32,000 nt of DNA from Candidatus Saccharimonadota bacterium (GCA_963706795.1 OY970170.1:1080001-1112000), one strand, 5' to 3'. Positions 429 through 28,546 are shown, counted from the stretch's first letter. Numbers and translations: made by a program. The notes: generated by a model not told the origin, from the letters alone.

Positions 429-429
429 C

Positions 430-2592: not shown

Positions 2593-2620
2593 ATATTGCT
2601 ACACGCAAATTTCTTTAGAA

Positions 2621-3709: not shown

Positions 3710-3743
3710 TGAGGCTTAATGAGATAGATTTTTTAATATAAAG

Positions 3744-4394: not shown

Positions 4395-4397
4395 ATA

Positions 4398-5456: not shown

Positions 5457-5473
5457 TCAGAGAGTTTCTCACC

Positions 5474-7587: not shown

Positions 7588-8566
7588 ATTTTCTCATTTT
7601 CCTACGCCAGTGCCTCTGGACGAATACATGCACCAGCAGGCTGCGTGTATCTGTATGCTCAAGGAACTTTTTGGGTCTAAATTGGTCTCTATCTATATGA
7701 TTGGAGAAATGGGGCTTGAGGGGGTGTCAGATATTGATTTACTTGTAGTATACCGTGGTGAAGATCATAAAAAAGTAATCAGTCAAAACATTGGCTCATT
7801 GCCTCTAATTGATATGCCATTGCTTATATTGGAAACTGATGTGCATAATCTAGCACTCTATACTCATCACGTAGACTTTGAGTATCTGTATGGCAAAAAA
7901 CTAGATACTATGGAGCAAGAGCTCCCTAGGGAATATCTGCTCATCTATACATGGAAAATACTTTTCATGTCATTACTTCGGAATTTTTATCCTGTTATTT
8001 TTTCAAAAAGCATCCCCGTTAAACAGTTGCTGTCTCATATTTATGACATACGTTATCCTATATTATTTTTAGGGAGAATTTCATCATCGAATATGAGCAA
8101 ATACATGGATTTTCTTGATCGCTATAGTGTATTTCGAAAGAATTGGTACTCTAATCCGGATACTTCAGTTCTAGTGGCATTTTTACAGGAAGCAATAGAT
8201 CTTTCGTGGGAATTGATCTATCTTTTTACTGACAGTATGCCCTCAGTGTGAGTTTCTATAAGTCATGTGCTGTGAGGTAGGTATCCAACTATTTTTCTTG
8301 AACTACCAAAAGAAAAATATCGTGCACTTACCGAAAGGTACTATGCTACTATTTCTAAGAGAGATAGATTCTTGGTTATGCCTCGACAGTTTGACAGTGA
8401 ACATTGGCCAATAGAATATCAGGCTATACTGCATAATCTTCTTAAGGTAAATCCAGGTTTTCTGAGAACAAGCTTCAGTAGTATTACTCTGAGACTTGCC
8501 TTAAAGATAAAAAAAGTAGTGGATTTTATTAAAATTAGCTGGTTTATGCTGTATGAAAAAAATTAA
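7580..8566 (+). CDS. Nucleotidyltransferase-fold (Pol-beta superfamily) protein
   Basis: Starts at ATG 7580, overlapping the upstream gene by 8 nt, and ends at TAA 8564-8566. The NTase signature is LVSIYMIGEMGLEGVSDIDLLVVY (G-x-x-G then SD-I-D-L-L-V), followed by a helical C-terminal region. Two in-frame TGAs, at 8249 and 8273. Confidence 0.5.
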
Positions 8567-9605
8567 GTACCTGATGAATGGTTTTCAGTTTCAGTATCTG
8601 TTATTTTCAAAATATTTATCAGACCGATTTGATTTTGCATTTAAAGTGCCGGAATCAGGAAAGTTTACTCCAGGTTACTCTTATATCCCACGCAATCTCC
8701 TGTTATTAAAAAATCTCTATCGTAGGCGAGAAGTGCAGCAGTACGATATAATACAGATTAATAACACAGAAAATTTTCTTAACTTTAAGCCAAATCCACA
8801 CCAGGTATCCATTGCTGAATCGCACGGATTTGATTTTGGAGTGAACTATTCCAGATATTTGGAAGATGAAAAAAGTCCTATCAAATACGCTCTTGGCTGG
8901 ATTATTGATAAGCTTTTGGGATCATGGATTCGAAAAAAAATTCAGCAATTTGATCTCTATTACTGCTCAACTCCAGATATGCAGGAGCCTCTTTCTCGCC
9001 TTGTTCGAGAGGATGTGAAATGGCTTCCAAATCCAGTGGACACTGCTACGTTTACTCCCGAATGAGAAGTTATAAAACTCATGGGTGAGCCTGCATTTTT
9101 TTTCCCAACGCGATTACACGGTGATAAAAAACCGGAAATTGCCATTGATATATTTAAAAATCAAATCAAGCCACTCTATCCAAATGCTACTCTCCATTTA
9201 CTAGAGTGGTGATATGAAGTTCCTAAATATAAAAAACTTTTAAATGATCCAAATACCTATTTTTGGCATGGATTTATGGATAAGAGTACCTTGGCTTCAA
9301 AAATTAGATGAAGTGATTTTTGTTTCGGAGACTTTAGTATTGGCGGGTTAAGTCTCATGCCAATGCAAATTATGGCTTGTAAAAAACCAATTATCACGTA
9401 TGACATACACGAAATTATTCATGTACCACTTACTGGAATATCTGAATATACTATGAGTATCCTATGAGATGAAAAACTTCGTAATGCTCATGTGTCTCGA
9501 AATTATGAGTATGTACAATCAGTGCATTCAGAAGAAGCAGTCATAAAACAACATCTATCCTATCTTGAGCCTTTTGTATTTAAAAAGCTCGGTATAAAAT
9601 TATAA
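8553..9605 (+). CDS. Putative glycosyltransferase (GT-B-like C-terminal half)
   Basis: Starts at ATG 8553, overlapping the upstream gene by 14 nt, and ends at TAA 9603-9605. The stretch FFFPTRLHGDKKPEIAIDIF...GDFSIGGLSLMPMQIMACKKPIITYD resembles the nucleotide-sugar-binding half of GT1/GT4 enzymes. Four in-frame TGAs. Confidence 0.5.
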
Positions 9606-9627
9606 GTTTGTATACTCTTTGTATTCT

Positions 9628-10236
9628 ATGAAAAAAGTTTTAGCAATTGGGCCACATCCAGATGATATTGAATTAGGGTGTTTCGGAACTATGTGTAAAT
9701 ATGCAGAAAAGGGCTATGAAGTACACTTTCTTGTTCTTTGTAGGGGTGAAGCGTGAACTGCAAATGGCGATCGCACGCAGGAAGCTAAAAATGCCGCCTC
9801 GCTTCTTAAATGTAAGCTCTATGTAGAAAATCTCAAAGATCGCTATATTTCTGAATGACCAGAAACAATAGCCACTATTGAAAAATATATTAAGGAGATC
9901 AATCCTGATACTGTTTTTATTCCGTCAGGAAATGATACGCATCAGGATCACCGAGCAGTCCATTTTGCAGCACTTGTAGCTACGCGTCTAACGAAGGAAA
10001 TCTTTGTGTACCAGTCTCCAAGTACGACAATTAATTTTAAGCCAAATTATTACGTCGATATTACGCCATACATGGACACTAAAATGGAGGCAGTGAAGAT
10101 TCATTCTACACAAGGCTGAAAGGTGTATATGGCTGATCGAGCTATTCAAGGGCTTGCCGAGTATCGTGCATTTGATATCTTTTTGAATGATCGATATGCT
10201 GAGGCATTCGAGCTTCTTAAGTTTGTAGAACTGTAA
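9628..10236 (+). CDS. PIG-L / LmbE family N-acetylglucosaminyl deacetylase
   Basis: Runs from ATG 9628 to TAA 10234-10236. Starts MKKVLAIGPHPDDIELGCFGTM (the PHPDD-E-x-G motif) and has a downstream HQDH metal-binding motif. Three in-frame TGAs. Confidence 0.85.
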
Positions 10237-10237
10237 T

Positions 10238-10909
10238 ATGATTTGTTCTATACATCAGCCGAATTACATACCCTACTTAGGACTATTCAATAAGATTGCA
10301 CAGTCTGATGTTTTTGTGTTTTACGATATTGCACAGTATACCAAAGAGGACTATCATCAACGCAATACAATCAAAGGTTCTAGTGGGCCTATACGCCTCT
10401 CCTTGCCAGTATCTGTGCATCTTGGTATGACGATTAAAGAGGTTACCTTTGACCAAAGAGTACTCGAGAAACACTGGAAAACCTTTGAAATGAATTATAA
10501 AAAAGCTCCATTTTTCGAAGTGTATAAAGACATTCTCAGAGGTATATATTCATATGAATGAAATAATCTCTCAGAATTTAATTGTAAGACTATAGAAACT
10601 ATTTGTGGCCTTTTAAACATAAACACAAAACTTGTACTTTTGTCTGATATTTTGCCATCACTGCAAACAAAGAGCACCGATGCGCTTATAGAAATATGCC
10701 AGGCAGTAGGAGCTGATAAGTATATTTCTTGAGCTGGATGAAGAGGATACGTGAATGAAAATACATTTACGAATGCACGTATTGCTTTAACATTTCAAGA
10801 TTTTAAGCATCCCGTATACTCTCAGCTTTGGTGAGACTTTTTGCCGTATATGAGCATCCTTGATCTACTTTTAAACGAAGGTGAAAAAAGTAGTGTCTTC
10901 GTCTACTAA
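10238..10909 (+). CDS. WbqC-family protein (glycan modification, function unknown)
   Basis: Runs from ATG 10238 to TAA 10907-10909. The sequence MICSIHQPNYIPYLGLFNKIAQSDVFVFYDIAQYTKEDYHQRNTIK...KHWKTFEMNYKKAPFF is a close match to the WbqC-like family pattern. Four in-frame TGAs. Confidence 0.8.
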
Positions 10910-12180
10910 GTGCTTATTTTTATCTGCCTTAGTACGTAGATTAATACACAGAGTTCACTCAAAATAGTTACCCCAACTGAGGCAATCAATCAGAATTGCG
11001 GTACGAAATAATAATTACCGATTATATTGAAAATGACTACTCCAAATAAGAGAAGGGTCATTTTTTTTATTGCCGCAATGCTGTAAGTATAAAAAAGTGC
11101 ATTCCAAAGATAGAGTTTATTGCTTACTGCAGTGAGCAGTGTAAAGGCAATTATGAGTGGCCAGTGAATTGGGTAGTGGAATCCGAACTTGATAATAAAA
11201 TATATTAAAATAGGCACAAGAAATATATCTCATACGAGTACAATATTTGCGATTTTTTTCAATTTTTCTATGACAGGTTTTTTGTCATCTATCATGAAGA
11301 GTTTTGTAGAAAGCACATTTAAAAGAAGGCTAATTATAGTGGCGGTAATGATTATTGAGCTATCATAGTATGCCTGAAAAATACCTAGTTGTTCAGTGGG
11401 GAGAAACTTATATAGAAAGACCTTATCAATATATGAGAGGATTGATTGAAATAGAAATATTAAAAATATCCATGTTCCATAACTATAAATCTTCTTGATA
11501 TGGCCCCAGGAAAAGCTGAAATGAATCTTTGGGGATAGATATAAAAGGGCGGCCACTATTTTTGTGCTATAGAGAACTATATACGGAATCAAAAAGAGAC
11601 GTATATCTGCATAGTAAAAAGACATACTCAGAAAAACGATGAACATAGTGATATGTGCACTGCTGGTCATAATACTCTCTTTATCAAACAGATTATATGC
11701 CCTCAAAATGCCCTCAAAAAAACTATTTCCATAGAGTAAAACGAGTAATAGAAGTACATAGTGATACTTTATGGAGGTTAATCCTGTAAAATCCATAAAC
11801 ACTCCTCAAAACCAATAGTACAGAGTAATTGCTCATGGCAGCAAAATGAGTATGAGCCAAAAGACAGATGAAAAATAAATATTTTTTTGCGCTACGTCTT
11901 TTGTTTCGGCAATATATTTAGTGCTTCATTGTAAAAAAAGTTGAAGAGGCAGCATGAAAAGCGATGCAGCAGCCAGCATAAAAGAAAAATCTCCAAAAAT
12001 GTTGGATCCTACAATATTGCCTCCATACACGCGTAGTCAAAAGAGCAATATTTTTGATATCACTGCTGCTCACACTACAAATCAAAGATCTCTTAAAAAG
12101 ACCAACATATCATCTGATGGTCCGTGCCCAAATATTCGTAGATGTAGAAAATCTATGAATCGAAGAATATTTTTTTTCAT
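10906..12180 (-). CDS. Wzx-like polysaccharide / O-unit flippase (MOP superfamily membrane protein)
   Basis: The minus-strand frame is open from ATG 12180 (alternative ATG at 12207) to TAG 10906-10908. The product is about 424 aa and hydrophobic throughout, with many TM helices (LGFVVGAAVISKILLFGL, IYFSSVFWLILILLPGAITLYYWF, GTWIFLIFLFQSIL). The track splits it at TGA codons 10990, 11230, 11806 and others; there are eight in-frame TGAs. Confidence 0.7.
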
Positions 12181-12213
12181 AAATCTCGAAAGCAACTGCG
12201 GCAACATAGTTTT

Positions 12214-13584
12214 TTATTGCCGTCCAAACTCATCCTCAAATCTCACAATATCATCTTCGCCTAAATAATCACCAATCTGACTCTCAATCAAATGTAGAAT
12301 CTCATTTGAACTATTTCCAAGTCTATGTTTTGTTTCAATGGGTATAAAACAGCTTTCGCCGCGTTGTAAAATTTGTGAAGATTCCCCTATGATCACATCA
12401 GCTACTCCAGAGACAACCACCCAGTGTTCGCTTCGTTTATGATGCAGTTGCAGTGATAGTCTTTTTCAGGGGAGCACTGTGAGGCGTTTGGTCTTATACC
12501 CGTTACCTTCGTCTATGACGGTATAACTTCCCCATGGACGATAAACTGTTTTGTGGATTTCCGTTGCCTCTTTGTGGCTGGATTCTAGGATTTTTACTGC
12601 TTCTTTAACATATTGTGATGAGCCTTTTTTTGTGATCAGTAGTGCATCATGTGCATCTATAACCAGTGTATTGTCTAGTCCGATAAGCACGATCGGTTTA
12701 TGAGTATTTTCGGAAATACGAAAATTATTCGCTCAGTCTATCTCAATAAGTGCCTCCTGTTTGTTTGTGATTTTTGCGTATTCTTCGAGTGCATCAAAGC
12801 TTCAGAGATCGCTCCAATATCAGGGGAAGGGGATTGTGGAAACCTTTGTGGATTTTTCGAGGATACCGTAGTCGACTGAGATATCTGGGAGTTTTTGGAA
12901 TCGTTCTACAATGCTGGATTCAGTCTCGAATATGTTTAAGTATGCTGGATTAATCGCACGAAGCTCTTTTATAAAAAGCTCTACATTAAAAAGAAATATG
13001 CCAGAATTCCAGAGATAGCCTTTGGCTAAGTATTCTTTTGCAGTTACTGCGTCGGGCTTTTCTTTAAATTCGATTACACGAGAACATGTTGTGGGATTTT
13101 GGGCGAGAATATAACCATACCCCGTATGTGGTGAAGATGGTTGAACTCCAAAAGTAATGATGGTTTTTGAGGCTTCTTTTGACCATTGTTTTACTGTGTC
13201 GGCGAAGAGTTGTTCATCACCGATGACATGGTCTGATGAGAGTACGAGCACATCAGAATTACCAGAGAGTCGTTGAATTCCGAGCAAAATTGCAGCAAGC
13301 GTATTGCGTGCCTGCGGCTCAAGAATGAGATTTGAGTCTCATAATTCTATTCCGAGTTCTTCCGCCTGAGTCATGCAATGAAATCTGTAGGTTTCATTGG
13401 TAACGATTCGAATATCTTTTGTTTCGGATAACAGTAGCGCCCGTTCAAGAGTTTTTTGAAAAAGAGATTTACCTTCAAAAAGGTCGAGTTGAATAAACTG
13501 CTTTGGATATTGCTTGCGTGAAAGTGGCCAAAGACGTGTCCCTGAGCCTCCGGCAAGTATGATTGTATGAATTTTTGAGGACAT
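12214..13584 (-). CDS. manC: Mannose-1-phosphate guanylyltransferase / mannose-6-phosphate isomerase (bifunctional type II)
   Basis: Four track ORFs share one frame (12214, 12466, 12820, 13339). The N-terminus is IILAGGSGTRLWPLSRKQYPKQF...LEPQARNTLAAI. The C-terminal cupin is LSLQLHHKRSEHWVVVSG...ETKHRLGN...YLGEDDIVRFEDEFGR. It starts at ATG 13584 and stops at TAA 12214-12216. Confidence 0.9.
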
Positions 13585-13585
13585 A

Positions 13586-15406
13586 TTATTTCACCGTTAC
13601 GCTCTTCGCTAAATTTCTCGGCCTATCAATCTCTCGTCCCAGTAAATCAGCTGTATGGTACGCAAATAACTGTCCTGCAATCGATGCGAGGAAGGCGAAG
13701 GAATACCCATTACACTCAGGAACTGTGATATTCCAGTCCGCATGTTCAATGACACGCTCTGAGATGGCGAGGACTTTTCAGCCACGGGCGCGGATTTCTT
13801 CAATGGAGGAGCAATTTTTGAGGAAGTGTTCGTCATTGGGAATGAACACCACCGAAGGACACTCAGGGTCAATGAGTGCGAGTGAGCCATGCTTGAGCTC
13901 TCAGAGTGGGAGTGCCTGTGCGTGACGATAGGTGATTTCTTTGAATTTAAGTGCTGCCTCCATAGCAACAGGGATTCCGGCACCTCGCGAGAGGAAGAAA
14001 CAGTGCTCGAACTTTGTAAAATCCTTTGCGATTTTTCGGATGCTCGAGGAGAGATCGAGAACTTCGAAGGCGTCTTCGGGGAGTTTTTCGAGGCATCAGA
14101 GGACTTTGCGATATTCGCGGTAATCACCACCGCATTGGATTGAGAAAAAAAGTGTGAGAAGTAGTACCGCTCAGAGCTGTCCGATAAATGCTTTTGTGGA
14201 GGCAACACCGACTTCGGTTCCGGAGTGGGTGAAGAGTCACATGTCGGTCATGCGAGCTATGCTTGAGCCTACAACATTCACGATACCAAAGGTTTTTGCG
14301 CCCTTCTCTTTGAGGTATTTGAGCGGCTCAAGTGCATCGGCGGTTTCTCCGGACTGAGAGACAAACACGTAGAGTGTATCCTTGCGAACATTGACCGGTC
14401 GCGAAAAAAACTCACTCGCGATCGTAGCCCGAGAAGTGATACCAGCAAGTTCCTCGATCCAGTATGACCCCAGAAGTCCTGCATGGAAAGATGTTCCGCA
14501 GGCGATGAATTCTACGTTATCAAAGTTGGTATCACGTAAATCCTGGAACGAATTTGCCATGAGTGTCAGATCGTCAAAATTGACGCGTCAGCGGAATACT
14601 TCGGCAATACTCATCGGAGTTTCGTCGATCTCTTTGAGCATGAAATGTTTGTAATTCCCTTTGCTGATATGTAGTTTTTCTACATCGATACGTTCAAGAG
14701 AGCGCGACACGAGTGATCATTCTTGGCGGACAGAGTATTGCCCATTTTGAATATGGACGAGATCACCGTCTTCCAAAAAAATAACATCCTGTGTTTCTTC
14801 GACAAGTGCGTTGGAGTCGGAAGAAAAAAAGAAGGTATCATTTGCACCTTTTCCTAAAATCAAGGGGCTTCCGTATTTTACACCGATCATTTCAGTGGGA
14901 TTTTCTACGCTGACAACGAGGAGTGCATAGGCTCATTCAAGCTTCGGGAGCACCTTTTCGACACGTTCGAGAAGGGTAGATCCTGGCGTGTCTTCGATCA
15001 ATTTTACGATGACTTCTGAGTCGGTCTGACCATAAAATGTATAGCCTTTTGCAATGAGTTCAGCCTGAAGTGCTCGGAAATTCTCGACAATTCCATTATG
15101 AACGAGATAGAATTGTCGCTTGGTATCGCAGTGTGGATGAGTATTTTCTGGGGTAACTCCGCCGTGTGTTGCCCAGCGGGTATGACCAATACCCATGGAA
15201 TATTGTTTTGCAGGATTGCGGCAGTTTTCGACAGTATTCGTGAGCTCCGAGACTTTGCCAACGGCTCTGAAAAGATCGATGGTTTTACCATCATGTACCG
15301 CGATTCCGGCTGAGTCATAGCCTCTGTATTCGAGCTTTTCGAGTCCATGAAGCAGGATACTATCAGCATCTTTGCGATCTCAGACGTAGCCAAATATTCC
15401 GCACAT
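13586..15406 (-). CDS. glmS: Glutamine--fructose-6-phosphate aminotransferase (isomerizing)
   Basis: The start is MCGIFGYV[TGA][28 protein letters not shown], from ATG at 15406. It includes [11 protein letters not shown], the SIS domain CGTSFHAGL...[13 protein letters not shown], and the C-terminus [11 protein letters not shown] followed by TAA 13586-13588. It carries many in-frame TGAs. Confidence 0.95.
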
Positions 15407-15409
15407 AGA

Positions 15410-16519
15410 TTACAAGAGAGAAGTAATATGGTCTACAATCCTGTTCTGGAAGATACTTCGATCGAATTTCATAGCGTATTTACGAATATCGTAGGCGCTC
15501 CAATTTTGTCATTCAAATCGCTCCACAGCGTCCAAGACTGCGGGTACGGTTTGTTCCTGGAAAAACACTCCACTTTCGCCATCTCGTACCGTCTCTAGGG
15601 CTCATCCCTTCCCAAAAGCAATGACTGGAGTACCACAGAGCATGGACTCGATGGGAACCATTCCAAAGTCTTCGTCGGCTGCAAAGAGAAACGCTCGTGC
15701 CTTTTGGTAGAGCTTAATCTTTTCGGAATGTGTCACGCCGAATTTCCAAGTAATATTTGATTTTGAGCGCTTCATGAGCTCTTTTTGGAGCTTGTTTTCG
15801 GTGTTCGTGACTATGACGAGCTCTTTGCCATTTTCGTTGAATGCATCAACCAAAAGGTCGTATCGCTTGTAGGGGATTATGCGCCCAACAGCGAGATAAA
15901 AATTAGATTTGTCTGTCTCGAGAGTAAATCTGCTGCTATCTATACCAGGAGTGATGACGGTGGATTCGCGGCGATAGTATTTTGCAATACGATTGGCCGT
16001 ATTTCGCGAATTTGCAATAAAAGCATCAACTCGTGCCGAAGCTGCAATATCCCAGAGGCGAAGTCTATGAAAAAAATACGGCATCACGAGTCGCGCAAGT
16101 GGATTGAGCCAGCCGAATTCTGGATTTTGCATGTATTCATGCGCGTGACTCCAGTAGTAGCGAGTTGGCGAATGGCAATAACAAATATGAAGGGTCTCTG
16201 GCTGCGTAATAATCCCCTTCGCTTCGGCGCTCGAAGCCGAAATTACAATATCATAGCCTCTGAGGTCGAGGCTCTCAAAAGCATATGGTCTGAGGAATGG
16301 TACAAGTTTTGGGCGCGTTCGAATAAAAGGAATTTTATTCAAAAAAGTCGTTCGTACCTCTCTGAACGCCAGATCTGGAAAATTCTTTTCGATAAATACG
16401 GATGTATAGAGATCGGCATGAGGAAAAATCTCCAAGAGATCATACAAAACCTGCTCTGCACCTCCCCAGTCTTTGAGCCAGTCGCAGACGATTGCGATAC
16501 GTTTGTCTTCGAATGCCAT
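15410..16519 (-). CDS. Glycosyltransferase family 4
   Basis: Starts at ATG 16519 with MAFEDKRIAIVCDWLKDWGGAEQVLYDL. The sequence EDFGMVPIESMLCGTPVIAFGKG[TGA]ALETVRDGESG continues through TGA 15602 and TGA 15509 to TAA 15410-15412. Confidence 0.85.
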
Positions 16520-16534
16520 TTTACTTGTTGAACT

Positions 16535-16562
16535 TTGTACTTAAAATCGGGCGAAGTATACT
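16535..16562 (+). promoter_or_regulatory. Candidate sigma-70-type promoter for the 16577 GT4 gene (TTGTAC, 16-nt spacer, TATACT)
   Basis: TTGTAC lies at 16535-16540 and TATACT at 16557-16562, 14 nt upstream of the TTG start. The -10 box sits in the palindrome AGTATACT, which also reads TATACT on the minus strand. Confidence 0.35.
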
Positions 16563-16576
16563 AAACACTCTTTCAA

Positions 16577-17677
16577 TTGAAAGGAAAAATCGCGATCGTA
16601 CACGATAGTTTTTTTGTGAAGGGCTGAGCTGAGCGAATGAATATCCAAATCGCTAAAATGCTCGGAGCTGATATTGTGGCAGCTCTGTTTTCGGAGGCGA
16701 GCTACGACCTCGAGTCGATGGGTTTTACATGAAAAAAAATCAGCGTCTATTCAGGATTTAGACGTGGAATGTATGGATTCCTCATAATGAAGCTTGCATT
16801 CTTTTTTCGCACTTCTTGTCTGAGTGAGTATGAGACCGTTATTTTTTCAAATGAAGGAATCAGCGCGCAGCGTTCTGTAAAAAACGCAAAAAAAATCTAT
16901 TATGCGCACTCTATCTCTAGACATCTCTTCGACCAAAAAGCGGATTATATGCGCAAAGCGCCAGCTTGGTTTCGTCCGATCTTTTCGATTGCACTGACAA
17001 TTTTTAGAGTGTGGTATGTAGCTGATCTCAGGGCAATGGATCTCATATTTGCCAATTCGCAGAAAAATGCGGAATTCCTACGAAAACTTGCCCCAAAGGT
17101 CCGCGTAGAGGTGCTCTATCCGCCAGTTGATACCACAGAATTCTTCCCTTGAATAGATGATGAAAGAGGGGATTACTATCTCTCATATGCACGTCTTGCT
17201 CACTCAAAGCGTGTCGATGCGGTGATCCGTGCTTTTAAGCTCATTTCAACAAAGAAACTGCTGGTTATTTATGGTAAAAATGATCCACAGCGCGCAGAAT
17301 TTATATGACTTGCAGATGATGCGCCAAATATCGAATTTCGTACGCTTGAGGACAACAATGAGCTTCCGTCGATTGTACGGAAGGCTATCGCGCTCATTTA
17401 TGTAGCTCACAACGAAGATTTTGGTATGAATACAACCGAGGCTTTCGCATCGGGGATTCCAGTGATTTCGGTTGCTGAGGGTGGATTTTTGGAGACGATG
17501 ATCGATGGGGAGACAGGTGTCCTTTTACAGCCAGATTTCTCTGATCAGGACCTTGCAAATGCGGTGGTGGGAATGTCACATGAAAGAGCGCTTACCTTTA
17601 GAGATGCGTGTATTGCGAGAGCTGAACATTTCTCTCTCGTATCTTTTGAGAAGCGACTTAGGGGATTTTTAAAATAA
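16577..17677 (+). CDS. Glycosyltransferase family 4
   Basis: A TTG start at 16577 is required to include the conserved N-terminus KIAIVHDSFFVKG[TGA]AERM. The C-terminal part is NEDFGMNTTEAFASGIPVISVAEGGFLETMIDGETG. It ends at TAA 17675-17677, with four in-frame TGAs. Confidence 0.8.
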
Positions 17678-17684
17678 AACTCCA

Positions 17685-17719
17685 ATAAAAAAACACCGCC
17701 TCGAGGCGGTGTTTTTTCT
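17685..17719. terminator. Bidirectional rho-independent terminator between convergent genes
   Basis: AAAAAAACACCGCC-TCGA-GGCGGTGTTTTTT forms a perfect 7-bp GC-rich stem (17694-17700 with 17705-17711). An A-run flanks it on the left and a T-run on the right. Confidence 0.85.
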
Positions 17720-17728
17720 TTGTAAAAA

Positions 17729-18571
17729 TTATTTTCGAGTTCCTTCGTATGTTGCAATTCCCTTGAGTGAGACTCGGACTGATTGCTCGCCGTCAACATG
17801 TGTACCGATGATATATTCTGGGAAGAATATGATCGCCTCGTCGCCGTCGATGACAACATTTTGGTAGTTTTTCCACTTTGAATCCGTTGCGTCGATTACA
17901 GCCTTCTTACCAAGATTTGGGTATTTTGCGAGAAGTGCGGTCTGTGCTCGGAATGCGAATTCATTGAGTGTATCCTGCTTCCCAAGGAGATAACGTCTAA
18001 ATGTGAGGTGTCGTCCTGTGTCGCTGTAGATATATGTCTGATTGATATTGATCCCGTGAGCTCCACCTGTAAATTCGTAGGCGTGGATAACGGTTGAGAT
18101 CGTCTTTGCTGACTTATATGATGCAAATGAAGAATCATAGCTGAGTTTCGCACTCGAGATACCTGCAATATCCTTGGCATTGTCCTCTACTTCTGTAATG
18201 CCAGTTTTAATAAAGTGCTCGATTCGCTTATTTGCGGGAGTGAGATTTTTGCTCTGGTATGATGGATATTTTGCATCCACTTCTGCGATTGCATTTTTGC
18301 TGATCGTCTTGATCTCAAATCCGGATTCACGGAAGAGCTTCCATTCCTCAACACTTCGTCCGTCTGGTAAATTGCAGAGCGCGTATTCTCCACCCTTTGC
18401 ATCTTTTTTAGTGATGGATTCTCCACCAAGATCTTTACAAAATACAGATGCAGGATTAGCCATACCTGCAATAGGTGTGACAGGAGTTGCGGTAGTAGTC
18501 ACCATAACATCAGCAAATCCAATGGCTGGTACGACCATGGCAATGACGAGTGAACCTAAAAATCGAAACAT
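17729..18571 (-). CDS. Secreted protein with an N-terminal DUF333 domain and a C-terminal DUF3298/DUF4163-like domain
   Basis: Starts at ATG 18571 (the track starts it at TTG 18577). The signal peptide is MFRFLGSLVIAMVVPAIGFA. GMANPASVFCKDLGGE...ALCNLPDGRSVEEWKLFR matches DUF333. YEFTGGAHG...LTFRRYL is typical of DUF3298. No in-frame TGA. Stops at TAA 17729-17731. Confidence 0.7.
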   Translation of the reverse strand: MFRFLGSLVIAMVVPAIGFADVMVTTTATPVTPIAGMANPASVFCKDLGGESITKKDAKGGEYALCNLPDGRSVEEWKLFRESGFEIKTISKNAIAEVDAKYPSYQSKNLTPANKRIEHFIKTGITEVEDNAKDIAGISSAKLSYDSSFASYKSAKTISTVIHAYEFTGGAHGININQTYIYSDTGRHLTFRRYLLGKQDTLNEFAFRAQTALLAKYPNLGKKAVIDATDSKWKNYQNVVIDGDEAIIFFPEYIIGTHVDGEQSVRVSLKGIATYEGTRK

Positions 18572-18763
18572 ATACAAAAATTATTCAAATAGATTGCAGC
18601 GAATACTGCTCATATGCTACAACGAATTTTAAAAAATAATGTGACAAAAATCCTAAATTTTATTTTCCCAACGTTTTCGATATACTTCACGCCATCAAAA
18701 GCAGAAAACTGAGATAGCTAAGGCTTTCTCTTTTTTGAATATTTTTCACCTTTTACACAGAGT

Positions 18764-20497: not shown

Positions 20498-20516
20498 AAT
20501 TGAATTGGGGAATTAT
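20481..20516 (+). terminator. Perfect 11-bp inverted repeat spanning the GIY-YIG stop codon (candidate terminator or RNA hairpin)
   Basis: ATAATTCCCCA (20481-20491) pairs with TGGGGAATTAT (20506-20516) around a 14-nt loop containing TAA 20495-20497. The downstream T-run is poor, so terminator function is uncertain. Confidence 0.35.
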
Positions 20517-20578
20517 TTAGTATAGAATGAATCTTGTTTGTACACATGCCCCCATTTATTACCCGCTAAATCTGATCT

Positions 20579-21415
20579 ATGTATCCAAAGATTCTCCGTA
20601 AAAAAACGGTACAGGTACTTCTTTGAGTTACCCTTTTTGCAAGTCTCTCTGTCGGCTCTGCTTTTGCTTCTTGGCAGTCGTTTTCGACTACGATGGGAGT
20701 TGGTATCGGTCAGTCAGGCGGACCATGTAGCAATGACGGCGCACTCATCGCTCAAAATGGCGATGTCGTGACTACCAACAAATGGAATCAACTCGCATGT
20801 CAGGTTCGTGATGTTTGGTACGAGCTCTCTGATGGAATGCGCGGTGCGACATATTTTATCCGAGGTCACAACGATCCATCAGGTGTAGGTGGTAAGCCAG
20901 GATATATTGTTGATGAGATTAATCTCCCAACAGTGAGCGGTATTGCTCCAGGATATGGAGGAGCGATCAATTTTAAGAATTCTACAAAGTCATATAACGA
21001 TGCATCAGGATTTGGTGGTGGGATCCTCTACGGACTCACTAACTCTACTGCCCTCGATTTCCTTGGGTTTGCAAATGGAGTGCGCATTACGACCGGTAAT
21101 ACTGGTAGCTACAAGGCGTACACTGTCGGTTGGGAAAAGGTAAATGCACTCGATACCGCAGATTTTGATACAAGCTGTCAGTATCGTGCAACGACAGATG
21201 GTGGTTGGAAGCTTAATTTTTCGGGAGTTTCCACTCGTAAGCTTATTGCGCAGTTCAATACTTCTGACACGAATATGGATACTACTTCAACATTCTATAC
21301 GGTAGTGCTTGCGAGCAATGCTAAGAACGTGATTTCGTCTGCAGCAAACGGCAGCAGTGTGGTGACACTTCTTGAGAAGTTTTGTCTCCCGTCATATAAT
21401 TCAAACAACTACTAG
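20579..21415 (+). CDS. Secreted hypothetical protein (278 aa)
   Basis: ATG 20579 gives the signal peptide MYPKILRKKTVQVLL[TGA]VTLFASLSVGSAFA-SWQ, which the track misses because of TGA 20624. The mature part is rich in Gly, Asn, Ser and Thr. I recognise no family. Stops at TAG 21413-21415. Confidence 0.6.
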
Positions 21416-21440
21416 TCTCGTATCCTTATAATTTTTTTGT

Positions 21441-21971
21441 ATGAAGTTCATTACGAAAATTCTCCCTGTTTTGCTCTTGCCTGTGGTTCTGACTTCTTGT
21501 TTTTGGAATAGTGATACGAACAAGAACCAAAATACCAATAACGGTAACACGACGGTTCAGCCGGATGCGAGTAATACTCCAGAGGCAATCAAAGAACGCG
21601 ATCGTATTAATAGTCTCAATACACTCTCCAAAGACAATCTTGCAACACAGATCGAAGAAAAAGACGGCAAGAAAACTCTCAAAGATCGCCGTCTGTTCGT
21701 TAATTACATGCGAGCACAAAAGGTAAATAGCTCTAAAGACCTCATCGCAAAACTCACGGATATCGAATGATTTGCAAAAGACAACGGAGTAGAGCTCACA
21801 GATGCTGATATCTACGTAATGATTGCAGGATCTCAAATCGAAAATAATTCATGGAATGTCTGTGGTAACTTCGCCACTACCAAGCAGACGCTCGATAGCA
21901 AAAATAAATACTACGGATACATCTCGAAACTCTGTGTTCCACCAGAAGCCCCAAAACCAGCCAAAAAATAA
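21441..21971 (+). CDS. Putative lipoprotein (176 aa)
   Basis: MKFITKILPVLLLPVVLTSC carries the lipobox L-T-S-C, followed by a low-complexity N/T/Q linker. The frame continues through TGA 21768 to TAA 21969-21971. Confidence 0.65.
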
Positions 21972-21995
21972 TCTCACTACTAACCCTAGGGTAGT

Positions 21996-24900
21996 ATGAA
22001 AACAAATATAAAAAAACTCCTCATCGCCATCATCCTCTGAGCATTAAGTTCGCTCTTTGGATGATTTGTCGTTTCTGCTACTGCGGTTATCCCGATGTCT
22101 TCGGGCGTACGATATCAGACATATACAGTCGAATGGTGTTCGCCACATGCAAACGATGCCTCAATGGCTGGATGAGTATGGAGTGCGCCATGTAAGACTG
22201 GTTACTTCACCAATATCGGCGGCGTTGCCAAGATTGTCTACAACGGTCAGGATTTTGTAAGTGGGAATATACGAGCTCAGAACGCTCTTGCTGCATCGCT
22301 TACGCGAACGGCTAATCTCTCGAACGCATCGCCTCCAATTATTGATTTTTTTGCGTCGGTCACAAACGGTGCCTTTTCGATGGAATGAGAGGGTGTGCTC
22401 AAAATTAAGGTCTATATGACAGACTACGCAGAAAATGCGAGCTTTTATACGCTGACATACAAAATCGACAAGACTGCACCGCAACTCACCTTTGCAGGTA
22501 TTACCGAAAATACTGACTACACATTTTATGGAGGTCGTGTAAATACGAGTTTTACGGTTGATAAAAATGACTCTTCTGCCGCTCTCTCGAGTGGTGATGG
22601 ATATAGCAATCCTTCTATTGGAAGCTATGCTGGCAATACTGCCACGCCTCGCACGGGTCATCTTCGCAATAATCTCCATGCGTTTTATTTCCAGAATAAT
22701 CTCTCTGGTGATGGGGCGAATAGTCCATTTGCGGCAAATCTCAATTATAGTGACAATTATAATGGGTTCCTTACTCAGACGGCGACGATGAGCGATGGAA
22801 CGAATACGTCTCTGGTTGCAGGTGAAAAGAAATTCCAATTACTTACAGCGGATTCGCTCCCGACAGGCCTTGGTGATGTTCCAGCTGGTCCCTCTATGGC
22901 GGCTTCGACAGCCAATCTCATTGATAACAATGTAAATGGTCAGAAGGACTACCGTATTCGTCTCTATGATGATACATTTGATCAGAATGGAAATTCTGGT
23001 AATTACGCTGAAACTGCGTTTTATGCAGTGCGTGATAATACTCCACCAAATATGGGTGGAAACGGTCTTGCTCCTGATGTACAGACAGCGATTGATACTA
23101 CGCTCAAATTTCCTGATGCCGAAACAGTCTTTGATAAGACGATTGGTTCTGGATTTTCGAGATTCTTCGCTGCGAATAATGCAGCGTCGATTCTCTATTC
23201 AGTGAGTGACAAAGGAATTACTGGCAATGGAAGTATAGCGGGTACGGGATGTTCGGATTATGGACTCTGTAATGCGGGTGTAGATCCTGCAACTATGAAG
23301 ATTAATATCGAAAGTGCAGCAACTCCTGGAACTCAAGAGACATTTTATCAGCCGACTGACCGGTTTGAAAATATCGGCCAGAAGACTAAGGACTTCTCAC
23401 GTTCTGATAATGGAGCACTCGCTTCAAATGGCGGATATCGCTATTACCCAGCACAGTTTTTGAGTAATAATCTCACTGAGCTCTGCGATACAGTAGGGAA
23501 TTGTATCGCTCCGGATCTCAAATTTAGAGTTGTAGCCAATGCACTCGATGGAACTGCTTCACACCTCAGTATTGCTGCTAATAATGGTGAGACCAAGATT
23601 ATGGCGAATGGAAGCGACGCATATCGTCTCACATATGGACTTCGAGATAAATATGGAAATAAGGTTGTCCCAGTGCAGTCCGTCGAAAATGCGAGCGCTG
23701 TAATCAAAAATGTGACGACCAATGCGGTTTTTGCCAACGGTCTCAGTGCTGATCAGCGAACCAATACTCCTACTGGCGCAAAGCTTGTGAGCGTAGCTGA
23801 CAAAGAAACCGACAATACGGTATTCCAGGGGTCAAATATCAATACGACCGGCAATATCACGATGCAAGAAAAATTCACCAATCCAAATGGAAACTTTGGA
23901 ATTTCTCTTGCTTCGAAGGTTCCGTCGAATGACTTCTATCCATATCTTTCGGACGATTCGACACTCAAGGTAGCTTTGATTTGAGGAACTGCAGATGGAA
24001 ATGCTCCAGCTGGTATTACCTATCCACGTTCGAGTGCTGATCGCGTAGGGTACTTCACAAATCTCAGCTATACAGGTGGTAATACCAATCCACTCGTTGT
24101 AGCAAATAAAGGTGGACTGGGTGAGACTGGTGGATTTAGCAATATCACGGTAGATACTTCGCTTTATGGGCAATTTACCCTCAGCAATGCGTCAAATGTG
24201 TCATTCCTCGATATGGCGAATCGAAAGATAAATTTTGAATACGCTTCACCGCTCCTCTACGGTCTCGTTGGATTTAAGACGCTGATTGATGGACAATACA
24301 TGCAGCATTTCAAAAAGCTCTATACGATTGGTTCATCCGCAACGAATTACAATGTCTATGAGCGAAATCTTGTTGCGTACAATACCGACAAAGATGAGCA
24401 GCCAGGAGTTCTCAATTTTGATGTACGTGCTGCGGGATCGACAGATAACGCCCTCATTAATGAAGGTGCTGCCTATACGAACAACAATGTTATTGCATTC
24501 TTCCCAGGAGTTCAGACGGTGAAGCCGTTTGATATTGCGGGTGCATATGGCAGTGGATTCTCTGCAGAAGTACAAATGTCGGCCATCCCAGGTCATCCTG
24601 CATATGATAACTCAAAGCTTCGTACAGCCTTTGTAGCGGGACTTACTTATAACATCGGATCGGATCTCATTCTCTTGCCATCTATTGCACGTAATATCCA
24701 GGATGGATCAGGAAATGCACTCGATCAATTTGCGATGTCACGTAATTACTACTCAAACTCATATCGTATCGGAAGCACGCCAACAACCCTTAAGGCAAGT
24801 CTTATCACGGATATTGCAGTTACGGGTCTTACAAATCGATATAACTCGCTCACGACAGATGTTGGTGGTTCGAAGGCAAATTCAAATGTTTCGACCGAAC

Positions 24901-25847
24901 TCTCTCGTCCAGAACTCACTGCGAATATCAAAAAGAATGTCGCGATCCAAAGTGCAGGATTTGAGTCAGTAAATTCTCCGCTTACAGGTGTGAAAAAATG
25001 GTGTGCAGGATCTGAGATTGGGCAATCATTCATTGATGCTCCACCAAGTGAATGTACTCAGGTAATTAATGGCGAAACCATCTCATTTATTGATGGAAAT
25101 ACTTCACTCTTCTGTCCTTCTGGTGAATGTCACGTGAGTTCAAAGCGCAGTATCATCGTCCAGAACGGATATCTCCAGCTCAAATCTAATATCACTTCGC
25201 TCGACTTTGCTGGCGCTCAGACTAACGGTCAGCTCTTCCTTGCAGTTATGAATATTGGCGGACTCGCGAATCTCGCAATTGACGGTAATACTCCAGATAT
25301 TACGAATGCCGACAAGAAGGGATGGATGCTCATTGATCCAAGTATCACCAATCTTGACGCATTCCTTGTATCTCAGGGGCCAGCCGTGTCGTTTGATGGT
25401 ACAAAATTCTTTACGAAGTCGCTCACAACTGAGAATCAACTCCGCAACCAGCTCCATATCATGGGAAGTCTTCTGACGCTCAATAATATTGGAGGATCAC
25501 GCCAGGTAACTCCGGAATGTCCATATATCGTCAGCAACTGTAATGCTGAAACTGCTCAGATGTTTGACCTCGTCTATATGCGTCGTTTCGCACTGCAATC
25601 TAAAACAGTGTTTACGGGAGATCCGCTCGATATGAGCACGATGGTTCCGTATCATCCAGCAGGATTCGATGTAGCTAAGAAATCAGGTGGAACCGTTGGT
25701 GCTGAGCCAGCATCTGCAGCAAGTTGTACTTCAAATCCTACTGATCTGCGATGTATTAAGGATAACGACTACCGAGCTTATCCAATGCTCATCGAACGCG
25801 ATACACGATGGAATCAAACACCAAGTATATTTTTCCTTGTGAATTAG
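21996..25847 (+). CDS. Giant exported surface protein (about 1283 aa), adhesin-like, with an Ig-like (Big_1-type) segment
   Basis: ATG 21996 gives the N-terminal hydrophobic segment MKTNIKKLLIAIIL[TGA]ALSSLFG[TGA]FVVSATA. One frame joins track ORFs 22395-23984 and 24198-25847 through TGA 23982. The protein is Asn/Thr/Ser/Gly-rich. The segment IMANGSDAYRLTYGLRDKYGNKVVP (about 23562-23760) resembles invasin/intimin Big_1 domains. Stops at TAG 25845-25847. Confidence 0.7.
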
Positions 25848-25895
25848 TTTCTCTAAAGTCCCAGCCTCGATACACTTATTCCAAACTTGGAACCT

Positions 25896-28505
25896 ATGAA
25901 AAATCTCATACGACTCTCGATCTCATTTCTCGCTTTAGGGATGTTTGTTTCGTCAGTAAATGCTGGACTGATTCCAGGTACGATCTGAAAGGGGTCTTTT
26001 ACAGATGCTGCCTCTTGTACTGCGTCGAGCACATCGTATTCACCAGCAAATGGGAAATACTGGTGTACTAAAAATAACAGCTGTCGTGCTGCTGCCTGTG
26101 GACCTGGAATACCTGATCCTGAAGACAAGACCTATGTCGATTTCTCCGCTCAGGGGTATGGTGATATAAGTGCTCTTGCGCAGTGTAATCAACTCATTTT
26201 TGATCACTTTACGTATCAGGCGTATGCTTGTAGTAATGGTGGAGGATGTTCACTTGATGGTTTCCCGCCAGATGCAGAACATCCATCTGCTAATCCAGCA
26301 CGAGTTGGAGCTTGTGTGCCACATAATGCTTGGGTTGCAGCAAAGGGCTGAGTATGTGAAGATCCTTCATGTGGATGTGCTGAAAATACTTCTGGTACGA
26401 CAGGAACATTTAATCTGACTGACTACTCAGATGCTACCAAAAACCCTGCATTTTCGAGTGCTGGAGTAACTCGTAAGCTCACGGTGGATCTCTCACGAAC
26501 ATGTTCGACAAGCGCACGAAAAACTCAATCGATCACAGAGCCGAGCTATTCAACTTGGACATGTCCTGGGAATAATTGTTCTCCGCTCACTCAGATTATC
26601 CGTACGGGTGGTCAGGATGCGGTATGTAACGGGTATTCTGGAACTGACAACCTCATTGCGAGTTTTGACCAGATTGGAAATATGACCTCTTCCAGCCCAA
26701 CGCATAATGATGGAAACTGTACAGTAGAAGGTCGATATGCAACACCCGATGATAATGGACCAGATATTACGGTAGCGAATGATACGGTGTTTTCATCTGA
26801 CGCTGATAAGTGGTGTAGTCTCACTAAATGGTATACCGGATCAGGAAGTATTCCTTCTGGCTGCGCTTGGTACGCAGCTCGTAATAGTCATGCAGTTGCC
26901 ACTAATCCTGTAGATCTCATCGAAAATCTCGCGATTACTATTGGGGCAGATCCTTCGAGTATTGGAGCGGTGAAGGTCGAACTTGGAAAATGTGAGTATA
27001 CATACACCCTCCCACGTGATAATTCCATTCTCAAGAGCACGACAAATGCTCAGGGAACAAAGGACAGCGGAGGATTTACGATTGGATATAATGCAGGATT
27101 TACATACGGAGGAGCGTCATATCCAAGCCTTCGAACTGCTCTTGGGGCGACTGGTGCAAATGGGCTCAATATCTGTCTCGACGAATGAAAAAACTTCCTC
27201 CGCGTAACCGCTGAAGATAATGCTCGCTCGGATAATGACGGTGTTACACTCGCAGCCAACAAGACTGTCTATATCTCTGGACTCTGAAACTTTAATAATA
27301 CCACACCGAACGTCACAAACGCTGCGACGATCAATATTGATAACTCAGCTCCTGGGCTCTCGATTACGGGTGATGCGAGCAAAGTATTTGAGTCAAACAC
27401 AAGTGTTATCAGTTTCATTGGATGATCTGCTACCATTGATCAGCATTGGAAGAATTACACTGTGAATGGAGGACTCTTTTCAGGAGATCCATACCGTGGA
27501 CTCGGAGCACCAACGTGTGGTAATTTTAATGGTGCGTGATTCCAATGTGATAGTGGGCCGGTAGTGTCACTCGATACGACTTCGACTGGAGCATCTACGC
27601 CGACCGCTTCCGCAAGTCTTACTGGTAGCTTGTTCGTACTCTTTGATGAAGGCACACCTCAAGCCTCAGGCTCCTCGGCGGCAAGACTCTGGGATACGAG
27701 TGGAGATTCGCATGGACTCCTCACATATGAGGCGAGCTGTAGTGATCCGTCGACATATAAAACATTTGCATACGCAGCGGGTGCAGCCTATGGCCCGATT
27801 ACAGGTCTACCAAGTACATATAGTAATACTAAATTTCCGATCACAGCATCCGAATCAAGCTGTTCAGCGCCACCTAGTAGTGGCGCTTGTTGATCTGACA
27901 ATAATGGGACATTGTCATCTACACCTACAAATCTCTGTAGTACTGGTACTGCGAGCAATATCAGTGGCTCTTGACCCTGGAACTGGTCATGTCTAGGAAG
28001 TAACGGCTGACCAAATGCTTCCTGCTACGCAAATAAAACTCCACCTACTCCTTCATCTTCGACACCTGATCCTACCCCAATACCAACTCCCACTCCTACC
28101 CCTTCTGATCCAACTCCCACTCCGATGCCAGTTGTCGTAAATGGCGCGTGTGGTTCTGATGATGGCAAGACACTCGCAAGCACGCCTACAAATCTTTGTA
28201 ATACTGGAACATCCAATTATCTCAGTGGACTCGGTCCATGGAGCTGGCAGTGTACTGGTCAAAATGGCGGTACAAATGCGAGTTGTTATGCAAGTTCGAC
28301 AACACAGTCATCTTCGGGTGGTGGCGAATGTATTCGTTATGTTCAAACGGCCTGCTGGGTTGATGGGCGCTATTTTGATTCTGACCCAACAGGAAATCAT
28401 AACGGATATGTTATTCAGTGTGGCTTTCCAACTGGCTGAGCTGCACCATATCCAGGATGGGTCTATGAGGGCAATGGTACAATCTGTGCTGAATACACAC
28501 CTTAG
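25896..28505 (+). CDS. Cysteine-rich secreted protein (about 869 aa) with two C-terminal 50-aa Cys modules and a Pro/Thr linker
   Basis: ATG 25896 gives the signal peptide MKNLIRLSISFLALGMFVSSVNA. One frame links 25896, 26484, 27564 and 28125 through ten TGAs. Cysteines occur throughout. Stops at TAG 28503-28505. Confidence 0.7.
27882..28031 (+). repeat. Cys-module repeat copy 1 (50 codons) inside the 25896-28505 gene
   Basis: GAC[TGA]SDNNGTLSSTPTNLCSTGTASNISGS[TGA]PWNWSCLGSNG[TGA]PNASCYA aligns without gaps to copy 2, which lies 261 nt downstream. Confidence 0.85.
28032..28142 (+). repeat. Low-complexity Pro/Thr/Ser linker coding region (CCN/ACN-rich)
   Basis: It translates as NKTPPTPSSSTPDPTPIPTPTPTPSDPTPTPMPVVVN. 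It also produces the spurious antisense GVGVG ORF at 28025-28216. Confidence 0.8.
28143..28292 (+). repeat. Cys-module repeat copy 2 (50 codons)
   Basis: The sequence is GACGSDDGKTLASTPTNLCNTGTSNYLSGLGPWSWQCTGQNGGTNASCYA. GGT codons at 28152, 28233 and 28269 correspond to TGA at 27891, 27972 and 28008 in copy 1. Confidence 0.85.
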
Positions 28506-28512
28506 TTTCTCT

Positions 28513-28546
28513 AAAAAAATACGAGCAGAAATGCACGTATTTTTTA
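28513..28546 (+). terminator. Candidate intrinsic terminator after the exported-protein operon
   Basis: AAAAAAATACG-A-GCA [GAAA] TGC-A-CGTATTTTTTAT forms a stem with one A/A mismatch and a GAAA tetraloop, followed by a T-run. It begins 8 nt after TAG 28505. Confidence 0.5.

Follow-up and report, generated by a model that had tools for sequence, protein, structure and literature searches.

The TRAP-family proteins of apicomplexans are thrombospondin type 1 (TSP1) repeat adhesins, and many surface-layer (S-layer) proteins are rich in asparagine, threonine, serine, glycine and alanine and poor in charged residues. For the Gracilibacteria and Absconditabacteria, whose members either attach themselves to other bacteria or use these as prey, it is an open question how the host is recognised and held. 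The literature on host attachment points only to type IV pili and to unnamed 'giant surface proteins' (PMC8080830, PMC13059738, PMC11452946), and the idea that surface proteins serve host attachment in candidate phyla radiation (CPR) bacteria is already current. Here, we analysed a stretch of 32,000 nucleotides from Candidatus Saccharimonadota bacterium (GCA_963706795.1 OY970170.1:1080001-1112000), called the window in the following, which contains four neighbouring genes, g1 to g4, on the plus strand at 20579-28505. Our results suggest that all four gene products are exported and that g3 and g4 form a conserved pair. We propose, with a probability of about 0.45, that the four proteins assemble into a surface structure for contact with another cell. 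We found neither the block of four genes nor the g3-g4 pair nor the family with the C-terminal domain of g3 described in the literature, and none of them matched a curated family or a solved structure.

When the standard bacterial code was applied, the g1-g4 region appeared as fragmented short open reading frames (ORFs), and 23 ORFs of at least 150 codons were obtained for the window with table 11. With codes 25 or 4, the window tiled contiguously into long ORFs. The residues opposite the TGA codons were counted in alignments of g3 and g4 with their orthologues, which were taken from DNA. Glycine was the commonest residue (1012 of 3341), the fully conserved columns were all glycine (GGGGGG), and tryptophan was not among the top eight residues. 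This shows that TGA codes for glycine and not for tryptophan, and that the genetic code is code 25, as had been assumed in an initial annotation of this DNA. Read in this way, g1 (20579-21415, 278 residues, from ATG to TAG) and g2 (21441-21971, 176 residues) each contain one in-frame TGA, which is codon 110 in g2, whereas there are five in g3 (21996-25847, 1283 residues) and ten in g4 (25896-28505, 869 residues). The spacers between the genes measure 25, 24 and 48 nt. The locus is 7927 nt long and thus takes up 24.8% of the window, in agreement with the earlier estimate of about 25%; the gene positions, protein lengths and spacers were also as first described.

Export signals were judged by the charge of the n-region, by the 12-residue Kyte-Doolittle mean of the hydrophobic core and by a cleavage-type site. 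The n-region was positive in all four products (+2 to +4), and the core reached 2.1-2.7 in g1-g4, whereas six cytoplasmic controls encoded in the same window (GlmS, ManC, ABC-F, WbqC, PIG-L and one glycosyltransferase family 4 (GT4) enzyme) stayed at or below 1.04. Cleavage-type sites were found in g1 (AFA↓SWQ), g2 (LTS↓C), g3 (ATA↓VIPMSSG) and g4 (VNA↓GLIPGTI). The features were found again in every orthologue. The residues directly behind the predicted cleavage site are conserved as well, g4 having the motif A/G-x-V/I-P-G-T-I and g3 the motif SSG(I/V)K..Y..WCSPH. Extracellular disulphides would fit these proteins because of the invariant cysteine sets in g1 (four), g2 (two) and g4 (12, with 7 more that are nearly invariant). 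Most likely, therefore, all four proteins are exported via Sec-type signals, g2 as a lipoprotein, and in this the initial annotation was borne out. Its remark that the signals become visible only after TGA read-through or re-starting does not hold for g2, where the signal precedes the sole TGA. In a closed Gracilibacteria genome, 66 of 1,243 proteins have a signal peptide (PMC6851277, Table 1), from which we roughly estimate that four signal-bearing genes in a row would occur by chance about 0.01 times per genome.

To compare the gene order, thirteen genome loci from metagenome-assembled genomes labelled Candidatus Peribacteria, Gracilibacteria or Patescibacteria group were translated with code 25. 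All four genes, on one strand and in unchanged order, were present in L001, L003/L005, L006, L007, L015 and L017. L009 contained g2-g3-g4, and L004 contained g1-g2-g3, after which the contig ends. The order is thus kept within the window's clade, in about seven assemblies with Gracilibacteria or Peribacteria labels, and the four genes are conserved together there, as expected for the proposed gene set. The genes flanking the block vary between the loci, and the block is therefore not merely carried along by a wider synteny. In L014, two tandem g3-g4 pairs were observed (2834-16960), in which g3 and g4 are adjacent. The pairs are 48% (g3) and 43% (g4) identical to each other, which indicates that g3-g4 was duplicated as a unit. 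One gene lies between g3 and g4 in L016. L020 encodes a genuine member of the g4 family (E 2e-74) directly upstream of a divergent g3-type protein, which is the reversed order, and the adjacency therefore survives a change of the arrangement. Overall, it persists down to about 30% identity. Since g1 and g2 are confined to the window's clade, and since the wider family that has the C-terminal domain of g3 is found without g1, g2 and g4, we conclude from these sequence comparisons that probably only g3-g4 is a deep unit, to which g1 and g2 were added in this clade alone.

The C-terminal domain of g3 comprises the residues ~970-1283 (24903-25844, plus strand), and the conservation within the family starts near residue 885. 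The domain contains the motifs KRSIIVxNGxL.LKSNI, IDPSITNLDAFL, LRNQLHIMGSLLTLNNIGGS, ECPYIVSNC, FDLVYMRRF and YPMLIERDTRWN. The TGA-free window fragment g3 885-1283 was modelled with AlphaFold2 (AF2) on an alignment of 54 sequences. The model had a mean predicted local distance difference test score (pLDDT) of 81.5 and a predicted template modelling score (pTM) of 0.80, and the model residues ~85-399 were mostly above 90. A stack of short strands was seen, with a long helix before it and helices at the C-terminus, and the domain is accordingly predicted to adopt a beta-rich, solenoid-like fold. A Foldseek search with the model found nothing significant in the PDB (best E 1.3) or in BFVD (best E 0.11). 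The weak top neighbours were pectate lyases, an ice-binding protein, the P22 tailspike, a PL6 alginate lyase, an Acinetobacter phage tailspike, ComZ and a TPS domain; for these beta-helix and solenoid neighbours the template modelling (TM) score was at most 0.15, the probability at most 0.06 and E at least 0.1. By comparison with PDB and BFVD, the modelled domain may provisionally be regarded as a new fold. Q, L, N, P and R were the residue types that stayed invariant in the 54-sequence alignment; with two near-invariant cysteines, they form a set that looks structural rather than catalytic.

The extent of the family was determined by an exhaustive HMMER search with a 1163-position g3 profile against 1.84 billion representatives (50% identity clusters). 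The E value was 1e-3 or lower for 485 clusters and 1e-30 or lower for 80 of them. Some 25-30 clusters are related to g3 over the full length, and many more, proteins of 650-1500 residues, have only the last ~400 residues (g3 885-1283) in common with it. The C-terminal domain is present in more than 100 cluster representatives. The motifs of the wider family are K(R/T)xIIVxNGxLYIKSNI, IDPxVTNIDA, LxNQLxIYGSxxSxNTIGGS, CPYxxxxC, AQKYDLNYLRRY and YPxIIE(R/Y)(D/N)...PPxLF. A signal peptide was present in every member inspected, and the proteins have conserved termini and a variable middle. When ten of them were searched against Pfam, nothing was found beyond weak Big_1/Invasin_D3 matches in one. 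Many entries (P0036-P0175) are stored with 6-9% tryptophan and 1-2% glycine because genes of lineages with TGA as glycine were translated with code 4. Judged by the profile search, the C-terminal domain of g3 thus defines an uncharacterised family with a domain of ~315-400 residues, many members of which come from such lineages. A word-indexed search gave only about a dozen g3 relatives at 43-53% identity, including two code-11 fragments of g3 itself. These fragments, P0012 and P0034 (522 and 544 residues, 100% identical), are the only form in which the public protein collections hold g3.

The surroundings of the wider family were analysed by a metagenome scan with the C-terminal sub-alignment, which gave 72 loci. 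The recurrent neighbours were housekeeping genes, among them genes for a sigma-factor-like protein (rpoD-like), primase (dnaG), Der and thymidylate kinase (tmk). A prepilin-peptidase-like membrane protein with a GAGDAKY motif was encoded in L030, L031, L039, L042, L044 and L060; in L044 its gene lies on the opposite strand, immediately upstream of the family member. At the g3 locus L012, a 745-residue protein with a type IV pilin-like N-terminus is encoded 2.4 kb upstream of g3.

The signal of g3 covers the residues 1-30 (..SATA↓VIPMSSG) and is followed by the N-terminal motif given above and by a beta-rich, Ig-like middle. With 9.1% asparagine, 9.0% threonine, 8.9% serine, 9.3% glycine and 9.6% alanine and few charged residues, the protein has the N/T/S/G-rich composition noticed at first sight. 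The residues ~128-185, which end with YKIDKTAP, match the repeats of giant proteins many times over, and Pfam assigns these repeats to Big_13/Big_3_3 Ig-like domains. This transitive match suggests that g3 has at least one Ig-like module related to the Big_13/Big_3 repeats. With E values allowed up to 1, neither g3 nor g4 directly matched an Ig-like family of Pfam. For the structure of nearly the full-length protein, the homologue P0006 was modelled with AF2 on a 16-sequence alignment. The model was poor (mean pLDDT 40), and only the residues ~270-560, about 290 in all, formed moderately confident beta-sandwiches. In Foldseek, it matched generic Ig/MG/FN3 arrays (complement C3, SdrD and accessory domains of GH2) with TM scores below 0.12. 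When g3 and g4 were aligned with hhalign, they were unrelated.

The g4 protein contains 36 cysteines (4.1%), in line with its first description as cysteine-rich, and has a signal at the residues 1-23 (..VNA↓GLIPGTI). Over 11 orthologues, 12 cysteines are invariant and 7 near-invariant. The matches of tblastn and blastp to the orthologues centre on a conserved core at the residues ~238-632 (26607-27791, plus strand) with the motifs CTVEGRYAT.DD.GP, WCN.TKY and EGKN..(R/K)VTA.DNARSD.DG... The identity to the window sequence was 0.33-0.46 for the residues 251-450, 0.26 for 451-500 and 0.35 for 501-550. The variable parts are the cysteine-rich residues 51-250 (0.11-0.22) and the residues 601-869 (0.07-0.19). 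Two cysteine-repeat modules of ~50 residues (656-710 and 752-797; 27861-28286, plus strand) with the pattern CGS..LC..G..GPW.W.C.G.NGG.NASC are separated by a Pro/Thr-rich linker. The module occurs in three copies in one L014 orthologue and in one copy in the other, and it had no match in PDB or NCBIfam.

The orthologues of g4 range from 783 to 1604 residues and differ at their ends. Some have short cysteine-containing tandem repeats near the N-terminus, 3 of the 11 have TSP1_ADAMTS domains (E 5e-18), and one has a PT-HINT/Hint domain. The last is the L017 orthologue (13927-18741, 1604 residues), which has TSP1 repeats followed by the pretoxin-type Hint domain at its C-terminus; only ~20 residues follow, with no toxin domain among them. 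The Hint domain was not found in g4 of the window. The initial annotation had called the surface proteins fast-evolving. This is true for the ends of g4 and for g1; it does not apply to g3, which is 35-60% conserved over most of its length. A word-indexed search for g4 homologues returned one match, probably since low-complexity candidates swamped it. A small cysteine-rich protein of 218 residues is encoded after the two g3-g4 pairs of L014 and is like a 255-residue protein after g3 in L012.

The two smaller proteins showed conserved features as well. In g1, the signal comprises the residues 1-30 (..SAFA↓SWQ), and W32, the GDxVTxxKWN motif (residues 61-70) and the cysteines 50, 74, 200 and 269 are invariant. 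Its orthologues are located upstream of g2-g3 in L001, L003, L004, L006, L007, L015 and L017. The lipobox of g2, L-T-S-C20, has S19 and C20 invariant in 10 of 10 homologues. After a low-complexity N/T-rich linker (about residues 21-50), a conserved domain of ~120 residues follows with the invariant cysteines 141 and 165. The NCBIfam matches of g2 were weak and to the lipoprotein signal only. An additional g2 paralogue of 182 residues with the lipobox ITSC was found upstream of g1 in L003 (7774-8322). Downstream of the divergent g3-type gene in L020 (8256-9861), two small N-terminally anchored proteins are encoded. Both have a GDxVT...WN-like motif reminiscent of g1, and one also has a Pfam H_lectin domain. 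A kinship of g1 with these proteins was rejected, as only this motif is in common and the g1 profile misses them.

The four genes may be expressed together. Co-transcription is plausible because they are on the same strand with short spacers, their order is conserved, and a single hairpin is present, located after g4. The hairpin (28514-28545, plus strand) begins 9 nt past the g4 stop, is flanked by an A-run and a T-run and is a candidate intrinsic terminator. It has a folding free energy of -12.2 kcal/mol (z = -3.26), and 0 of 200 shuffled sequences folded equally well, so that the hairpin proposed at this place was found again (z = -3.3). It was not called by a simple consensus terminator scanner. 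As for promoters, a weak match, TTGAAT-17-TAGAAT (9/12), is present 50 nt upstream of g1 (20500-20528, plus strand), and a strong one of the near-consensus sigma-70 type, TTGAGA-17-TATAAT (11/12), lies within the final 45 nt of g1 and upstream of g2 (21372-21400, plus strand). Both are consensus matches only, and promoter-like matches in the region were no more numerous than in shuffled sequences. The second match could provide g2-g4 with a separate transcription start. Opposite g3, an antisense ORF of 1032 codons (22839-25934, minus strand) was observed. Its length is due to the codon choice of g3, in which TTA occurs twice and CTA not at all. It was rejected as a gene, being a codon-aligned shadow of g3 whose translation is not protein-like. 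Shadow ORFs of the same sort are also present opposite g1 and g4.

Taken together, we infer that g1-g4 may assemble into a structure on the cell surface that contacts another cell. This reading is based on the Ig-like and TSP1 modules, the conserved core with variable ends, the paired duplication and the epibiotic or predatory relatives. The related lineages are epibionts or predators, and large surface proteins are suspected in their host attachment (PMC8080830, PMC13059738, PMC11452946). In such a structure, g2 would be lipid-anchored in the membrane, with its small helical domain tethering the assembly. The large g3 would be the scaffold, fixed to the envelope or to its partners by the N-terminal motif and the solenoid-like C-terminal domain of ~315 residues, with the Ig-like middle projecting outward. 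g4 would be held by its many disulphides and bind g3 via the conserved core, and its rapidly changing, cysteine-rich, modular ends, where the orthologues have TSP1 repeats, would be the recognition surface. The small secreted g1 may be a disulphide-bonded accessory.

A more specific form of this proposal, which we regard as possible though somewhat doubtful, is that g3 and g4 are a two-component host-recognition apparatus that evolved in the code-25 lineages and has not been described before. Here, g3 would be held on the cell by the new-fold, solenoid-like C-terminal domain, and the modular ends of g4, including thrombospondin-type repeats, would determine which host cell is bound. If this is true, the duplicated and diverged g3-g4 pairs in one genome would represent alternative host specificities.

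Several results weigh against a role of the locus in host contact. g1 and g2 were not found at the distant, AT-rich g3 loci and occur only in the window's clade. No g4 was present within 10 kb on either side of g3 in L012, nor in the 10 kb downstream in L011, where only 638 bp are present upstream. At the 72 metagenome loci of the wider family, g1, g2 and g4 were neighbours in none. The g4 of the window itself had no TSP1 match in Pfam, and Pfam, NCBIfam and inspection of the C-termini revealed neither LPXTG nor SLH nor any further known anchor. The Ig-like array of g3 would follow from one transitive match and low-confidence structure matches, and its basis is weakened by the poor modelling of the middle (pLDDT 40). 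Finally, a wider family that is embedded among housekeeping genes as a solo gene would fit a core envelope component equally well as an adhesin.

The main alternative, which we consider unlikely but worth serious attention, follows from this last point. g3 and the wider family would be structural proteins of the envelope that form an S-layer or a fibrous coat, the C-terminal domain being the wall anchor and the variable N-terminal part the exposed lattice, and g1, g2 and g4 would be accessories of the clade. The wider family indeed consists of single exported proteins of 650-1500 residues in housekeeping positions without g4, with conserved termini and a variable middle, and the N/T/S/G/A-rich, charge-poor composition of g3 is that of many S-layer proteins. 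The locus also follows an 18-kb glycan-synthesis region in the window, although this cluster is not a conserved neighbour elsewhere, and the surface of Vampirococcus is fibrous (PMC8080830). However, neither SLH nor another known anchor domain of S-layer proteins was detected with Pfam and NCBIfam, and conserved cysteines are kept in g3. The diverged paralogues and the paired duplication with g4 suggest diversification rather than one lattice protein.

It is quite improbable that the four genes are mere neighbours kept together by the synteny of the clade, or that they serve the capture and uptake of a substrate. In favour of it, the occurrence of g1 and g2 is limited to a single clade, the internal promoter-like site is located before g2, and other flanks are syntenic in close relatives, for example the IleRS gene upstream in L003 and L017. 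Against this, the g3-g4 adjacency outlasts a divergence to ~30% identity, the change of order in L020 and the duplication of the pair. The genes outside the four vary between loci, and a row of four signal-bearing genes would arise by chance in only ~0.01 cases per genome by the rough estimate made above (numbers from PMC6851277).

We give least credit to the idea that g3 is secreted to attack the prey envelope as an enzyme or toxin, such as a beta-helix depolymerase targeted to the prey by g4. In its favour are the predatory life of related organisms (PMC8080830), the beta-helix proteins that form the weak top neighbours of the C-terminal model (pectate lyases, the P22 and Acinetobacter phage tailspikes and PL6 alginate lyase) and the pretoxin-type Hint domain at the end of one g4 orthologue. 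Against it, none of these structural matches reaches significance, with E never below 0.1, TM no higher than 0.15 and a probability of 0.06 or less. Pfam and NCBIfam gave no catalytic family, the invariant residues form no recognisable acid/base set and no toxin domain follows Hint in L017.

The remainder of the window is occupied by genes of other kinds. From 1 to 17.7 kb, a polysaccharide-synthesis region encodes an epimerase-GT4 fusion, at least six GT4 enzymes, WbqC, PIG-L, a flippase, ManC and GlmS. The fusion is a single ORF (310-2592, plus strand, 750 residues) with an NAD-dependent epimerase/dehydratase domain and a GT4 glycosyltransferase part. The glycosyltransferase block at 2600-12200 has 33-39% GC, compared with 43-48% in the rest of the window, and the lower GC suggests a laterally acquired or variable glycan cluster. 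A functional tie of the polysaccharide cluster to the g1-g4 locus was rejected, as the proximity of the two is not conserved among the other loci. Located 2 kb upstream of the locus is a gene for a fifth exported protein with DUF333, PdaC and DUF3298 (17729-18580, minus strand), and between the two sits the ABC-F ATPase gene. Downstream of the locus, an HD/YfbR-like protein and then PheT are encoded. Scans of the window for tRNAs and Rfam families found none.

Searches for known families gave no identification of the four proteins. No match for g1-g4 was found in Pfam and NCBIfam even at E = 1, apart from the weak matches to the lipoprotein signal of g2. PHROGs and PADLOC did not match any of them either, g3 and g4 being represented in the PADLOC search by the homologues P0001 and P0010, and no relative of the locus was found among viral contigs. 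Together with the housekeeping neighbours in the window, these searches indicate that the locus is not in a prophage, and on this evidence it is neither phage-borne nor a defence system. Among the PDB sequences, the profiles of g1, g2, g3 and g4 had no credible match, and the g3 models had no significant Foldseek match. Thus, the initial annotation was right in recognising no catalytic motif, as neither a catalytic nor another known family appeared in these four collections. It was also right in assigning the composition of the locus to no known system, as PDB profiles and Foldseek (PDB, BFVD) gave no credible match, and the remote homology searches it had advised for the two large proteins and the structure searches for g3 ended in the same way. 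The C-termini of g3 (...TPSIFFLVN) and g4 (...GTICAEYTP) are without LPXTG and without a hydrophobic segment plus basic tail. The class III signal of type IV pilins (G↓F/M-T-L-x-E) is not present at the N-termini of g1-g4, and the structural match to ComZ is insignificant.

The family has been hidden in public databases by fragmentation under code 11 and by mistranslation under code 4, which puts tryptophan in place of glycine, and alignments are distorted by this. For the question of host attachment, the locus offers a concrete candidate, namely a conserved g3-g4 pair with a confidently modelled family domain and variable adhesion-type modules on g4. These are testable targets for localisation, binding and host range in cultured relatives.

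Compared with known systems, g3 resembles beta-solenoid surface proteins (DUF3494 ice-binding-like proteins, ComZ, TpsA/hemolysin TPS domains and tailspikes) in the strand stack and flanking helices of its C-terminal domain. It differs from them in the low structural similarity (TM at most 0.15, E at least 0.1), the absence of a sequence relation and the absence of a pilin signal, and, unlike in TpsA/hemolysin systems, the TpsB partner family is matched by none of the four gene products. g4 is like the TSP1 adhesins, such as the eukaryotic TSP1/ADAMTS proteins, in being a cysteine-rich extracellular protein with TSP1_ADAMTS in 3 of 11 orthologues. In contrast to these, g4 of the window has its own CG..LC..W.W.C..GG..C module and a core that is unrelated to known families. 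With S-layer proteins, g3 shares the conserved termini, the variable middle and the composition, and its wider family the occurrence as single-copy core genes. It lacks SLH or another known anchor domain, and the g3 subfamily is coupled to g4. The Ig-like adhesins (invasin/intimin with Big_1, the Big_3/Big_13 giants and MSCRAMMs such as SdrD) are comparable to g3 in being long, beta-rich and presumably Sec-exported, and further likenesses are the domain boundaries of the 'D-K-T-A-P' type, the transitive Big_13/Big_3 match, the SdrD and Ig/MG arrays in the Foldseek list of the g3 homologue and the weak Big_1/Invasin_D3 matches in one member of the wider family. In contrast to these adhesins, g3 and g4 have no Pfam Ig family at threshold and no LPXTG or outer-membrane anchor, and g3 combines a C-terminal domain that has no counterpart there with a dedicated cysteine-rich partner, g4.

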